A stretch of DNA of 26,575 bases from an uncultured Desulfobacteraceae bacterium (GTDB lineage: Bacteria; Desulfobacterota; DSM-4660; Desulfatiglandales; Desulfatiglandaceae): the NCBI GenBank assembly GCA_964483185.1, contig CAZACO010000001.1:1-26575 (forward strand), in the 5' to 3' direction. Under the pieces are notes generated by a model. The model saw only the letters and a program-made list of their open reading frames with translations. It was not told the DNA's origin and made no database searches. Shown in pieces: positions 3-3,896 of this stretch (the first letter of the stretch is position 1; every line of letters starts with the position of its first letter). The position numbers and the translations under genes were made by a program.

Positions 3-95
3 AACGGGGTGAAAAACATGGTTTTGAAATTTGCTTACCGGATAAACAGACTGGACGCCATCATCTCGCGACAGCACGTGCCGGTAGCCTTTTAG
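3..95 (+). CDS. rnfG: Probable C-terminal end of Rnf complex subunit G (partial, 5' truncated by window)
   Basis: Frame 3 reads NGVKNMVLKFAYRINRLDAIISRQHVPVAF-stop (TAG 93-95). 'NGVK' resembles the end of the RnfG FMN-binding helix (…SSRAVxNGVK), and the position directly upstream of rnfE fits the rnfCDGEAB order. The sequence available is very short. Confidence 0.5.
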   Translation, partial: NGVKNMVLKFAYRINRLDAIISRQHVPVAF

Positions 96-146: not shown

Positions 147-773
147 TTGCCTGCTACCACAAAAACAAATTTCCAGTTGGTCTCCAATGGCATCCTGAAC
201 GAGAATCCGATCTTTCGTCTGGCCCTTTCCATGTGCCCGGCCGTGGGAATCAGCACGACGGTCATGAATGGACTCATGTTAGGGATTGCCGTCCTCTTCG
301 TACAGGTGTTTTCAAGTTGCACAATAGCGGCCATCAAGGACTATATTCACCCCAGGATCAGGATTCCCACCTATACCCTGACGATTGCCACATGGGTGAC
401 GGTGATTGATCTGGTCCTGGCAGCATACATGCCTGCGGCCTACAAGGAGATGGGAATTTTCGTTAAGCTGATCGTGGCCTTTGCCATTATAACTATGAGA
501 TTAGAGATTTTCGCATGCAAAAACACGGTGTCCGCCTCTTTCTGGGATGGCATCGGCATGGGTCTGGGGTTTATGTTCGGCATGATGGCGCTCGGTTTTG
601 TAAGAGAATTATTGGGAATGGGGACGATTTTAGGGCACGACGTTTTAGGATTCCGGCCGCTCCTTTTCTTTGTCCTCCCGGCAGCCGGATTCTTCTGCGT
701 AGGCATTATGATGGCGTTGTTCAACTATATGGAGATTCTTTATAACCGGAAGAAAAGGGCCGAAGAGATATGA
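147..773 (+). CDS. rnfE: Rnf electron transport complex subunit E (divergent RsxE/RnfE)
   Basis: TTG start after an AGGA RBS. ENPIFRLALSMCP, RIRIP, GIFVKLIV…R.E.FA.KN, DGIGMGLGF and VRELLG motifs match the RnfE/NqrD family. Hydrophobic multi-TM protein whose stop overlaps the rnfA start (ATGA). Confidence 0.93.
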   Translation: MPATTKTNFQLVSNGILNENPIFRLALSMCPAVGISTTVMNGLMLGIAVLFVQVFSSCTIAAIKDYIHPRIRIPTYTLTIATWVTVIDLVLAAYMPAAYKEMGIFVKLIVAFAIITMRLEIFACKNTVSASFWDGIGMGLGFMFGMMALGFVRELLGMGTILGHDVLGFRPLLFFVLPAAGFFCVGIMMALFNYMEILYNRKKRAEEI

Positions 774-1732
774 AATTTCCCGGGCGAAGATATCTATTCC
801 CAGGCATTTTGGTTATTATCGCGATCTTCTGTATCAGCGGGTGTAAATCCGAGCACCGTTTTGTAAAGAAAACGGCCTTTAAAGAGGCCAACCAGATCGT
901 CATCGAGTTTGCCGGGCCGGTTGACGAGACCTGGGCAAAGGATCCTTCCAATTATATTGCTTGCGAAAAGCCTGACCCGGATATCAGGCTGAAGATTCAA
1001 CAGGTAACCGTCAGCGCGGACAAAAAAAACGTCACGTTGACATTTGCAGATGACCTCAATAAAAACCAGCCGCATGGGGTGACGGTCAACAATATTTCTT
1101 CTGAAGGGAGAGCATTGGGCACAGCCATCCTCAATGTTAAGAAGGTCTACCTCGGATATCTTTTTTCAATTCTTATCGGCGCGATGATTATCAATAACTT
1201 CGTTTTTACCAAGTATTTAGGTCTGTGTGTGTTTTTCGGGACATCTCAGAAGAAGTCCACTGCGGTGGGCATGGGGATCACATTTACCATCGTCATCATT
1301 GTCAGTGCAATGATGTCTTGGTTCCTCTACCAGTTTGTGCTACAACCTTACCGGTTGGACTTTTTGCAGATCGTTGTCTTTATCGGATTGGTTTCTTTAT
1401 CGGTTCAGGCGGTTGATACCATCTTAAGGAAGGTCAACCCGCTTCTGTTCAAGGCATTCGGGGTTTACCTGGTACTGGTCATCGCAAATTGTATTATTAT
1501 TGCCGTTCCCCTGATCCTTGCGGACAATCAATATAATGCATTTGAGAGTCTTATGCTTGCCCTTGGGGCCGGGCTCGGATTTTTGATTGCCCTGTTCCTG
1601 ATGTCCTCTGTCCGTGAAAGGCTGGAATTGGCCAATGTTCCCCCTACATACCGGGGCCTCCCCATCGCTTTTGTCGTGGCTGGCCTGTTCGCGCTGGCCT
1701 TTTTGGGATTTTCGGGAATGTCTATCTTTTAG
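770..1732 (+). CDS. rnfA: Rnf subunit A with an extra ~125-aa N-terminal lipoprotein/Ig-like domain
   Basis: The C-terminal ~195 aa have the RnfA motifs NNFVFTKYLGLC, AVGMG, LQIVVFI, ANCII, GAGLGF and RERL…VP. The N-terminus has a basic n-region, a hydrophobic h-region and a lipobox ISG-C (Cys25), then a beta-rich soluble domain. Confidence 0.93.
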   Translation: MKFPGRRYLFPGILVIIAIFCISGCKSEHRFVKKTAFKEANQIVIEFAGPVDETWAKDPSNYIACEKPDPDIRLKIQQVTVSADKKNVTLTFADDLNKNQPHGVTVNNISSEGRALGTAILNVKKVYLGYLFSILIGAMIINNFVFTKYLGLCVFFGTSQKKSTAVGMGITFTIVIIVSAMMSWFLYQFVLQPYRLDFLQIVVFIGLVSLSVQAVDTILRKVNPLLFKAFGVYLVLVIANCIIIAVPLILADNQYNAFESLMLALGAGLGFLIALFLMSSVRERLELANVPPTYRGLPIAFVVAGLFALAFLGFSGMSIF

Positions 1733-1938: not shown

Positions 1939-2805
1939 ATGGATCCAATATTGGTAAAACTGGCACTTGGCGGGTTAGCCGTATTGGGGTGCATTGGCCT
2001 GTTTTTTGGTATCGGTCTCGCCCTTGCCGCACACAAGTTTGCCGTGGAGGCCAATCCCAAGGTCGAGGAGGTATTGGAGGTTTTGGCAGGGGCCCAGTGA
2101 GGGGGATGCGGCTTCCCAGGGTGTGAAGCGTATGCCGAAGCGGTGGTGACTGCTCCCGATGTTCCCCCCAACCTCTGCTTCCCCGGCAAGGCGGAAGTAG
2201 CCAAAATGGTTGCAGAGATAACGGGCAAAAAAATGGCCGCTGTAGAAGATGTGGTAGCGACTGTCCGCTGTTCAAGAATCGAGGGAAAGGTCAAAAAGAA
2301 GCTGAACTATATCGGCTATGGGTCATGTACCGCTGCGACATTAGCCTTTGGGGGCCCATCTTCATGCCGGTACGCGTGCGTGGGCTTAGGTGAATGCGCT
2401 GAAGACTGCCCTTTTGACGCCATCGACATGGTGGACGGTTTTCCGGTTGTTGATTCAGCCCTCTGCGTTGGCTGCGGGACCTGTGTCCGCGTCTGCCCAA
2501 AGGGGATTATCGAATTGATCCCCTTGAAGGCCAGGGTCTGGGTCCCGTGCAGCACCAGAGATCCGGGCAAGGCCGTAAAACAGACCTGCGAGGTGGGTTG
2601 CATCTCGTGCAAAATGTGCGTCAAGACGTGCCCCGCAGAGGCAGTTACATTGGAGGACGGCATTGTCAGGATCGATCACCGGAAGTGTATGGAATTCGGT
2701 CCTGAGTGCGGTGAGATATGTATTGAGAAGTGCCCCAGGGGTATCTTCAGAAGCTATTCAGGGAGCCAAAAGTCAGTCCAACAGACAACCATGGCGGCGG
2801 CCTGA
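1939..2805 (+). CDS. rnfB: Rnf subunit B (polyferredoxin), probable selenoprotein (UGA = Sec54), 288 aa
   Basis: ATG 1939 follows AAGGAG. The frame reads MDPILVKLALGGLAVLGCIGLFFGIGLALAAHKFAVEANPKVEEVLEVLAGAQ-TGA(2098-2100)-GGCGFPGCEAYAEAV…PNLC and continues in frame into the 2143..2805 ORF with multiple CxxCxxCxxxCP motifs. The TGA sits at the first Cys of the RnfB 'N-C-G-x-C-G-x-x-G-C' motif. Confidence 0.9.
2101..2136 (+). promoter_or_regulatory. Candidate bacterial SECIS hairpin directly 3' of the in-frame UGA
   Basis: Folded by eye: AUGCG(2106-2110)/CGUAU(2129-2133), bulged G2111, CUUC(2112-2115)/GAAG(2125-2128), and a G-rich apical loop CCAGGGUGU starting about 15 nt after the UGA. Not computed. 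Confidence 0.6.
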
Positions 2806-2822: not shown

Positions 2823-3896
2823 ATGGAAAGAAATGGACGATTACATCATACATCGGGAATTATGAGTCGAAGGTCTTTTCTGAAGCTTTCGGGAATTCTC
2901 GGTATCGGTTTTGTCTCTGCTACAGTCATCCCCACCCGGGCGGAGGCCGTGAGGTTTAACAGCAGGCTCTACAAGATCTCCAAGACCCGGTTGGCCATGG
3001 GAACGTTTGTCTCCATGACACTCCTTCACGAATCGAAGGACCAGGCCCAAGAGGCGATGGGAGAGGCCTTTCTTGAAATCGACCGGCTGGCGCGGACCAT
3101 CAGCCGTTTTGATGAGACAACGGCCGTTGCGCAGCTCAACCGGGAGGGGTATCTGAAAGATATTCCCCCTGAGGTGGGAGAGGTGGTTGCCAGGTCGTTA
3201 GCGTACTACCGAATCAGCAACGGGGCCTTTGATATATCTGTCAAACCGGTCGTCGACCTGTTCAAAGAAAAGTTTTCCAAGGGTAAAAAAATGCCGCCCA
3301 CTGAAGCAGAGCTGAGGGAGGCGCTCAGGCTGGTCAATGCGTCCGATATCGAATTTGGGAGACGCGACGTCCGTTTCAAGCGTCCGGGTATGGGGATTAC
3401 ATTAGATGGCATTGCAAAGGGATATATTGTGGACAGGGCCTCCGGGGTCCTTGCCGGGCACCGGATAACGAATCACCTGATCAATGCCGGTGGTGACATC
3501 CGTACAATGGGCCACCGCCTTGACAAGAAGCCATGGACCATTGCGGTTCAGGATCCTCAGAAAGAGAAACATTATCCCGGCATTATTCATCTGACGGACG
3601 GGGCGGTTGCCACGTCAGGTAACTATGAGATCTATTTTGACCGGGAAAAGATGTTTCATCATATCGTGAACCCCCATACCGGGTTATCTCCCGAAGAGAG
3701 CACGAGCGTGTCGGTCTTGGCAGACACGGCCATGGAGGCAGATGCCCTCTCTACGAGTGTATTTGTCATGGCGCCCGAGCACGGCACACGCTTTATTAAC
3801 TCGCTTCCCAGATGTGAATCTCTCGTGGTAGCTAAGGGGAACATAAAGATCGAATCGGAGGGATGGAAAAGCGCGGCGATTTCAGGAATGAGTTGA
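2823..3896 (+). CDS. apbE: FAD:protein FMN transferase (ApbE) with a twin-arginine signal peptide
   Basis: ATG 2823 follows a GGAGG RBS, so the ORF-track start at 2730 is too far upstream. Motifs: MGT, LDGIAKGYIVD, NAGGDI, ATSGNYE, HIVNPHTG, ADALST. N-terminus SRRSFLK + hydrophobic stretch + AEA. Adjacent to rnf, whose RnfD/RnfG need covalent FMN. Confidence 0.93.
   Translation: MERNGRLHHTSGIMSRRSFLKLSGILGIGFVSATVIPTRAEAVRFNSRLYKISKTRLAMGTFVSMTLLHESKDQAQEAMGEAFLEIDRLARTISRFDETTAVAQLNREGYLKDIPPEVGEVVARSLAYYRISNGAFDISVKPVVDLFKEKFSKGKKMPPTEAELREALRLVNASDIEFGRRDVRFKRPGMGITLDGIAKGYIVDRASGVLAGHRITNHLINAGGDIRTMGHRLDKKPWTIAVQDPQKEKHYPGIIHLTDGAVATSGNYEIYFDREKMFHHIVNPHTGLSPEESTSVSVLADTAMEADALSTSVFVMAPEHGTRFINSLPRCESLVVAKGNIKIESEGWKSAAISGMS

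Follow-up and report, generated by a model that had tools for sequence, protein, structure and literature searches.

A lineage-specific Rnf subtype of Desulfobacterota whose RnfE lacks the second cysteine of the RnfA-RnfE iron-sulfur site

Introduction

In Rnf complexes, ferredoxin:NAD+ oxidoreductases that translocate Na+ or H+, an intramembrane [2Fe-2S] cluster is bound between the subunits RnfA and RnfE, while in the Nqr complex the homologous pair NqrE and NqrD holds the corresponding centre, and the four cysteines contributed by these pairs have been described as invariant and strictly conserved. The ligands of the Acetobacterium woodii cluster, designated AE1, are Cys25 and Cys113 of RnfA and Cys25 and Cys108 of RnfE (PMC11889175), and in Clostridium tetanomorphum Cys26 and Cys109 of RnfE have been named as cluster ligands (PMC9588780). 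The NqrD-C29A variant is devoid of the cluster (PMC10643135), and A. woodii mutants of the cluster cysteines lose two iron atoms and all activity (PMC11889175). In current models of pumping this cluster links electron transfer with both cation binding and the switch between inward- and outward-facing states. Here we describe an rnfE gene in which the second of the RnfE cysteines has been replaced. The gene lies in a stretch of 26,575 nucleotides (hereafter the window) from an uncultured Desulfobacteraceae bacterium, placed in the family Desulfatiglandaceae by GTDB (GenBank assembly GCA_964483185.1, contig CAZACO010000001.1, positions 1 to 26,575 of the forward strand).

The RnfE encoded in the window shares with the canonical proteins of solved complexes (chain E of 9ERI, 7ZC6 and 8AHX) its family, its length and its position in the operon (rnfCDGEAB), and keeps the first ligand cysteine, the gate leucines and the R67-E115 pair. 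It differs from them in lacking the second ligand cysteine and in carrying phenylalanine for the adjacent asparagine, lysine for the proline at the start of transmembrane helix (TM) 4a, serine for Gly28, glutamine for Leu53 and histidine for Pro68; its identity to canonical Desulfobacterota RnfE is approximately 38-43%. Its partners also depart from the canonical pattern, as RnfA has an exported N-terminal domain, RnfG is some 100 residues longer and RnfB has a selenocysteine (Sec) or cysteine as a cluster ligand. Vibrio cholerae NqrD (7XK3 chain D) has a homologous fold, with Cys29 and Cys112, but the complex of the window is of the Rnf type, with an RnfC carrying the domain for reduced nicotinamide adenine dinucleotide (NADH) and flavin mononucleotide (FMN) and a polyferredoxin RnfB, and not of the Nqr type.

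The sole Rnf variant that we found described for the phylum, the 'Tol2-type' complex of Desulfobacteraceae with its large RnfB, concerns RnfB and RnfC (PMC5109826). Whereas Tol2-type complexes are altered in these two subunits and have canonical RnfA and RnfE cysteines, the complex considered here, termed AFA-type after the residues that replace the usual VNC, is altered in RnfE, RnfA and RnfG and has a small RnfB and a complete RnfC. In the Rnf/Nqr papers searched, among them a review and a paper on the evolution of these complexes, an RnfE lacking the second cysteine is nowhere mentioned, and AFA-type proteins are labelled simply as RnfE or RsxE in databases.

Results

The rnfE gene occupies positions 147..773 (all window genes reported here are on the forward strand) and encodes 208 residues from a TTG start. 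Its product matches Pfam PF02508 with 174.8 bits (cut-off 23.8) over profile positions 2-174 of 174 and NCBIfam NF009070 (RsxE) with 212.2 bits, above the 184-bit cut-off, while the score against TIGR01948 (rnfE), 171.8 bits, falls under the cut-off of 213.4 bits. Where canonical RnfE and NqrD proteins read GIFIPLIVVNC, the window protein reads GIFVKLIVAFA. When aligned with solved chains by HMMER, the segment 'livafa' (residues 108-113) lies without gaps on 'livvnc' of both C. tetanomorphum 7zc6_E and A. woodii 9eri_E, matches that are nearly full length (E-values 4e-45 and 4e-41), and also on 'liitnc' of V. cholerae NqrD 7xk3_D (1e-27) and 'livtnc' of Azotobacter vinelandii 8ahx_E. Ala113 is aligned, respectively, with Cys109, Cys108, Cys112 and the equivalent cysteine of A. 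vinelandii, and thus falls on the ligand cysteine in these four chains; Cys30, within LSMCP, is matched to Cys26 in 7zc6_E and to Cys25 in 9eri_E. An earlier reading of the window, made from its sequence only, had held that RnfE keeps Cys30 but has AFA in place of VNC, with Ala113 at 483-485, and both the codons and the alignments bear this out. An alignment artefact that hides a cysteine at the ligand position is scarcely credible, as the motif is free of gaps and is flanked by the conserved residues Gly103, Ile109, Val110 and Glu120.

The segment Lys107 to Ala113 (KLIVAFA, 465..485) represents a remodelled TM4 kink, combining P107K, N112F and C113A; the codons are AAG for Lys107 (465-467), GCC for Ala111 (477-479), TTT for Phe112 (480-482) and GCC for Ala113 (483-485). 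The retained first ligand, Cys30 (TGC, 234-236), corresponds to the cysteine that the family has at the TM1 kink (L-G-x-C-P) and lies in the stretch Ser28-Met29-Cys30 (228..236), in which Ser28 (TCC, 228-230) occupies the position of a canonical glycine.

The AFA motif is not a peculiarity of one genome. All 120 nearest homologues (82-94% identity), which derive from metagenome-assembled genomes labelled Desulfacyla, Desulfatiglandaceae and Deltaproteobacteria, display GIF[VI]KLIVAFA together with LSMCP. At least 542 candidate loci came out of a scan that took one genome per species, and the best 80, which were fetched, are all AFA-type (48 GIFVKLIVAFA, 29 GIFIKLIVAFA and 3 GIFVKIIVAFA); they belong to Desulfobacterales, Desulfatiglandales and Desulfobulbales and include the cultured Hydrosulfovibrio ferrireducens CB1MN. 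A MAFFT alignment was made of 92 full-length sequences, namely the query, three close relatives and 88 of the 150 nearest representatives at 50% identity; its ligand column contains cysteine in 80 sequences and alanine in every member of the clade to which the query belongs. This clade is represented by 241 protein clusters, LS.CP being present in all 241, and the motif K-L-I-V-[AVT]-F-[AS] is the mark of this group of Desulfobacterota RnfE (Desulfatiglandales, Desulfobulbia, Desulfomonilaceae and others). A sister family in the same order has [KR]LIVTFS, and hence serine instead of alanine at position 113. Among 120 Desulfomonilaceae proteins (55-60% identity) the motif reads KLIVVFA in 109, ALIVVFA in 9 and KLIVAFA in 2, while protein P0122 (57% identity) has KLIVAFA and the distant members P0150 and P0189 have QLIVAFA. 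A group of Desulfomonilaceae loci (L086-L092, from genomes G295, G267, G081, G239, G369, G148 and G179) shows further features: RnfE bears a conserved extra tail, TGKIP[AT]SGG[GA]H, apbE is located away from the operon, and an in-frame stop interrupts rnfB, as in the window.

When a tree of 118 RnfE sequences is rooted on RnfA, the 19 clade members sampled form one group (Shimodaira-Hasegawa approximate likelihood ratio test, SH-aLRT, 99), which is nested among canonical, cysteine-bearing RnfE and set off by a stem 1.06 substitutions per site long. Identity to the query drops in one step, from 55% to 43%, on leaving the clade for any of the other Desulfobacterota RnfE. Within an even sample of the phylum (400 genomes), 165 genomes have an RnfE or NqrD homologue and 16 have the AFA-type. 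The motif, therefore, does define a clade, a point that the sequence-only reading had raised as a question. That reading had also considered that AFA-type RnfE might prove to be common and to hold a normal cluster; common it is, and we found nothing showing that its cluster is normal.

The loss of the cysteine is accompanied by a set of other substitutions, identified by comparing 92 clade RnfE sequences with 21 canonical Desulfobacterota RnfE. G28S, L53Q, P107K/R, N112F, C113A/S and G117M/S are found in all 92 clade sequences, N57S in 90 and P68H in 91, the canonical residue at each of these eight positions being present in 21/21; A119L occurs in 91/92, where the canonical alanine is present in 19/21. 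Gln53 (303..305) lies in TM2 at mid-membrane depth. His68 (348..350), in the cytoplasmic loop connecting TM2 and TM3, precedes Arg72 by four residues and forms part of an IHP motif present in 237 of the 241 clade proteins. Among family representatives Ser28, Gln53, His68, Phe112 and Ala113 are found only jointly, and no intermediate (Ser28 with Cys113, or Gly28 with Phe112) exists among the 150 nearest representatives. On one helical face of TM2, positions 49, 53 and 57 read T-L-N in canonical proteins and V-Q-S in the clade, a change that would shift the polar group to mid-membrane, the depth of the lost cysteine. Other elements are retained. The gate leucines Leu27 and Leu108 correspond to L22 and L103 of A. 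woodii, and Arg72 (360-362), which pairs with Glu120 (504..506) in the manner of A. woodii R67-E115, is, like its partner, invariant in two alignments; the roles of the gate and of this pair in A. woodii have been described (PMC11889175). The family fold has six TM helices, of which TM1 and TM4 are unwound midway. Helix breakers have disappeared from both subunits, through P107K and G117M in RnfE (together with N112F and C113A) and through P154V and P235V in RnfA, a replacement by helix formers that suggests a less unwound TM4 in RnfE. In the low-confidence AlphaFold2 (AF2) model of the RnfE monomer, for which the mean predicted local distance difference test (pLDDT) value is 62, TM4 is drawn as one helix (residues 96-123) with a pLDDT of approximately 60.

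It had been suggested in the sequence-only reading that another cysteine, either Cys124 or a residue given as Cys59, could substitute for the missing ligand. The latter is actually Cys58, and the protein has further cysteines at 124 and 184, but none of these fits the role: Cys58 is valine or isoleucine in 9/92 sequences, Cys124 (FAC[KR]) is found in 106/241 and Cys184 (GFFC) in 96/241 clade proteins, and five members of the clade have Cys30 alone.

Purifying selection on the clade is strong. Across 18 orthologues the rate of nonsynonymous substitution (dN) is 0.04-0.18, with synonymous substitution (dS) saturated, and the median dN/dS of the 56 usable pairs is 0.07. Codons at positions 107, 111, 112 and 113 vary synonymously while the residues are fixed, Ala113 being encoded by all four GCN codons, Phe112 by TTT and TTC, and Lys107 by AAG and AAA. 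Five of the 16 sampled carriers (G295, G081, G148, G179 and G251, which are 92-99% complete) contain no other RnfE or NqrD homologue at E <= 1e-10; such single-Rnf genomes were observed among Desulfomonilaceae only. The genome of the window (G000) does have a second Rnf, on contig C148 (loci L001, L002 and L118), with canonical RnfE and RnfA cysteines in the motif pairs LGLCP/IVVNC and LGNCP/ITTNC. Its RnfB is large, at least 445 residues (the gene is cut by the end of the fetched stretch), with Fer4_20 and a GltD-like, NAD(P)-binding Rossmann part, and the complex is of the Tol2 type. The C148 complex being of this other kind, the AFA-type is the sole Rnf found in this genome that combines a small, classical RnfB with a full RnfC. 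We conclude that the AFA-type is, almost certainly, a real and selected Rnf subtype and not a product of decay. This was also the view that the sequence-only reading took to be probable, and it is upheld by the monophyly of the clade, by its breadth (80/80 fetched loci and 241 clusters, Desulfomonilaceae among them), by the low dN/dS and by an operon that is otherwise complete.

The second cysteine is also absent from scattered, long-branch RnfE proteins outside the clade among the 150 nearest representatives: VSS is found in P0231 and P0242, VNA in P0249 and P0258, VNG in P0230 and VGV in P0181. The P0181 group contains three proteins in an rnfCDGEA context, with the RnfE motifs C-L-C-P and AVG[VG], and might be regarded as a natural ligand swap. 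At the P0181 locus, however (L119:5001-6214, a metagenome contig from the European Nucleotide Archive, encoding P0181, P0391 and P0392), the adjacent RnfA lacks both cysteines (LGIDP, ALNTAVLG), no rnfB follows, and two unknown genes stand where it would be. This lineage has thus lost more of the site and is no clean example of a ligand swap.

In the window rnfA (770..1732) encodes 320 residues, comprising a lipoprotein signal, an exported beta-sandwich of about 110 residues and the RnfA core. The core keeps both cluster cysteines, Cys153 in LGLCVF (1226-1228) and Cys241 in VIANC (1490-1492), as the sequence-only reading had noted, and these are invariant in an alignment of 54 sequences. A. 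woodii RnfA T110-T111, which contributes to a buried Na+ site (PMC11889175), corresponds to I-A in the clade (T-N or V-N in some subgroups), and the equivalent of E88 is Asp216. A signal peptide or lipobox followed by the beta-sandwich of approximately 110 residues precedes the core in all clade RnfA. In the AF2 model of RnfA the N-terminal domain has pLDDT values of 81-89, and the core falls below 50 around Cys153. The N-terminal region (window 770-1150) contains the lipoprotein signal ISGC, an invariant His102 and Pro70-Asp71, and a near-invariant E-K-P-D-P-D-I loop; these residues could form a binding site or a contact to the enlarged RnfG. RnfG itself is 280-320 residues long in 77/82 loci, about 100 more than the canonical protein, owing to an insertion ahead of the FMN-binding domain, in which TGATISS is kept (for example at L005:8840-9751).

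The rnfB gene (1940..2805) is of the small polyferredoxin type (NF005503, 329.9 bits) and contains an in-frame TGA at 2098-2100. This codon stands at the first ligand of a U-x2-C-x4-C-x17-C motif, that of the membrane-proximal cluster, and is TGA in 37/69 related loci and TGC or TGT in 32/69, the usual Sec/Cys pattern. The domain that carries this motif is mobile and delivers electrons to the RnfA/RnfE cluster (PMC9588780, PMC11889175); thus, the donor to the altered site is modified as well. In the raw sequence the spacer between rnfA and rnfB (1734-1925) is full of short repeats, consisting of GTGCCTAAAAT-like units followed by CACTTTAGA-like units in the opposite sense.

The remaining genes complete a full complement of Rnf subunits. 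The window begins inside rnfG, the last 31 codons of which (3..95) read, in frame 3, NGVKNMVLKFAYRINRLDAIISRQHVPVAF followed by the stop codon, in agreement with the C-terminus of the 304-residue RnfG of a relative (locus L005). The upstream part, namely rnfC, rnfD (SSATPL) and the beginning of rnfG, is found in the genome of the window at the end of contig C302; the window itself takes over at the rnfG tail. Downstream of rnfB, apbE (2823..3896; Pfam PF02424, 255.7 bits) encodes the flavin transferase for RnfG and RnfD and has the same place in L005, where the gene order is ribF, rnfC, rnfD, rnfG, rnfE, rnfA, rnfB, apbE, with all six Rnf subunit genes in one operon. The L005 RnfC (440 residues) has Complex1_51K, SLBB and Fer4 domains, RnfD (338 residues) has the motif STATPL, and RnfG has an FMN_bind domain with TGATISS; the motifs for covalent FMN are hence kept in the subtype (TGATISS in RnfG, STATPL or SSATPL in RnfD). 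The operon, examined in L005, contains no conserved cytochrome or other periplasmic redox gene.

Discussion

Since the canonical complexes cannot lose a ligand of the RnfA-RnfE cluster, some compensation is needed if the AFA-type is to work. The three other ligand cysteines are invariant through deep divergence and the cofactor sites of the electron donor and acceptor are intact, from which we infer that the complex still binds a metal centre in which something else occupies the fourth position. The centre is thus probably still held by RnfA Cys153 and Cys241 and by RnfE Cys30. We favour, on balance, the view that the AFA-type is a functional, lineage-specific Rnf subtype with a remodelled RnfA-RnfE metal site.

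The fourth position may be taken by an oxygen donor. The leading candidate would be Ser28, which is invariant in the clade, belongs to the unwound stretch linking the gate residue Leu27 to the ligand Cys30 and precedes the latter by two positions, although its assignment as the fourth ligand is tentative. Alternatively, Gln53, which faces inward from TM2 and is level with the lost cysteine, could hold a water or hydroxide as the donor or could itself contact the cluster. There are precedents for [2Fe-2S] clusters with three cysteines and one other ligand, such as the 3Cys-1His cluster of mitoNEET, in which a CxC pair participates, the 3Cys-1Arg cluster of biotin synthase and serine-ligated clusters, for example the auxiliary cluster of LipA. 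A Ser-x-Cys pair in RnfE would be comparable with the Cys-x-Cys pairs that chelate one iron in other [2Fe-2S] proteins. These proteins show that residues i and i+2 can bind a single iron, but they have unrelated folds, are soluble or peripheral and contain no intramembrane site; the likeness is one of mechanism only.

In the proposed mechanism electrons would pass from the membrane-proximal cluster of RnfB, with its Sec or Cys ligand, to the RnfA/RnfE centre and then to the FMN on RnfG. An asymmetric site that is less rich in thiolates and lies beside a straighter TM4 would be expected to have a shifted midpoint potential, and the linkage of cluster reduction with cation binding and with the inward/outward switch would be expected to change too. 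According to the A. woodii model, Na+ is carried across the membrane by the backbone carbonyl of V106, the counterpart of Ala111 here, and the N107A variant is only partly functional (PMC11889175). In view of these data a changed ion site or altered coupling in AFA-type Rnf is plausible from the residues that have been exchanged. The most elaborate form of this proposal, in which an intramembrane centre with three cysteines and an oxygen donor, beside a de-kinked TM4 in RnfE, has co-evolved with a Sec-ligated RnfB cluster and with new periplasmic domains on RnfA and RnfG, is speculative and we hold it to be rather doubtful.

Several considerations weigh against the favoured explanation. Serine ligation of natural [2Fe-2S] clusters is rare. 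The cysteine at position 28 of the P0181 lineage lends no support to that position as a ligand, because the RnfA of this lineage has lost both of its cysteines. The distances of Ser28, Gln53 and His68 from the site are estimates derived from topology and from published descriptions of homologues, given the low mean pLDDT of the RnfE model. Finally, Lys107, which might have been proposed as a ligand or an obligatory charge, is alanine in 9/120 Desulfomonilaceae proteins, glutamine in P0150 and P0189 and arginine in a few, and is thus not essential.

It could be argued that the intramembrane cluster has been lost altogether, that RnfA and RnfE serve only as a scaffold or an ion path, and that electrons reach RnfG and RnfD by a different route, for instance through a periplasmic partner bound to the extra domains of RnfA and RnfG. 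Mutation of just one ligand does deprive canonical complexes of the cluster (PMC10643135, PMC11889175), and every member of the clade has extra periplasmic mass in the form of the exported RnfA domain and the RnfG of 280-320 residues. If the site were empty, however, it would be hard to explain why the other three ligand cysteines are invariant in some 240 clusters, down to 55% identity and lower. In addition, an RnfB with the membrane-proximal cluster domain is kept beside rnfA, and no periplasmic redox gene is conserved in the operon. We consider such a loss to be improbable.

A second alternative is that His68 provides the fourth ligand; the resulting 3Cys-1His cluster would have a higher potential, dependent on pH, and would allow proton-coupled electron transfer. 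The histidine replaces an otherwise invariant proline in nearly all members of the clade (91/92 sequences, with IHP in 237/241), and 3Cys-1His [2Fe-2S] clusters do exist, as mitoNEET illustrates. It should be emphasized, however, that the A. woodii counterpart of His68 is Pro63, which precedes Arg67 by four residues, and that Arg67 pairs with Glu115 at the cytoplasmic surface (PMC11889175). This proximity to a surface arginine would place His68, by topology, at the membrane surface and probably too far from the mid-membrane site, making its participation unlikely. A decaying or non-functional paralogue tolerated beside a canonical Rnf, for which the canonical-cysteine complex on C148 might be cited, can be dismissed with near certainty, as dN/dS is about 0.07, none of the six subunit genes is disrupted, the motif is fixed in hundreds of sequences, 5/16 sampled genomes carry this type alone and the C148 complex differs in kind.

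The AFA clade contradicts the stated invariance of the four cysteines. A three-cysteine variant that is widespread and selected represents a natural experiment on the RnfA-RnfE site, as it shows which elements can be spared, which substitutions occur as a set and, perhaps, how potential and ion specificity are adjusted. If the most elaborate proposal given above is true, the AFA-type would operate at a different potential and in a different coupling mode, be it with H+ in place of Na+, with another stoichiometry or through a link to a partner in the periplasm, and would constitute a third functional class beside canonical Rnf and Nqr. The carriers are abundant sulfate reducers of sediments, syntrophs and dehalogenators (Desulfatiglandales, Desulfobulbia and Desulfomonilaceae). 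As no other Rnf or Nqr was found in several of the sampled genomes, the ferredoxin and NADH energetics of these organisms may be mis-modelled if a canonical Rnf is assumed.

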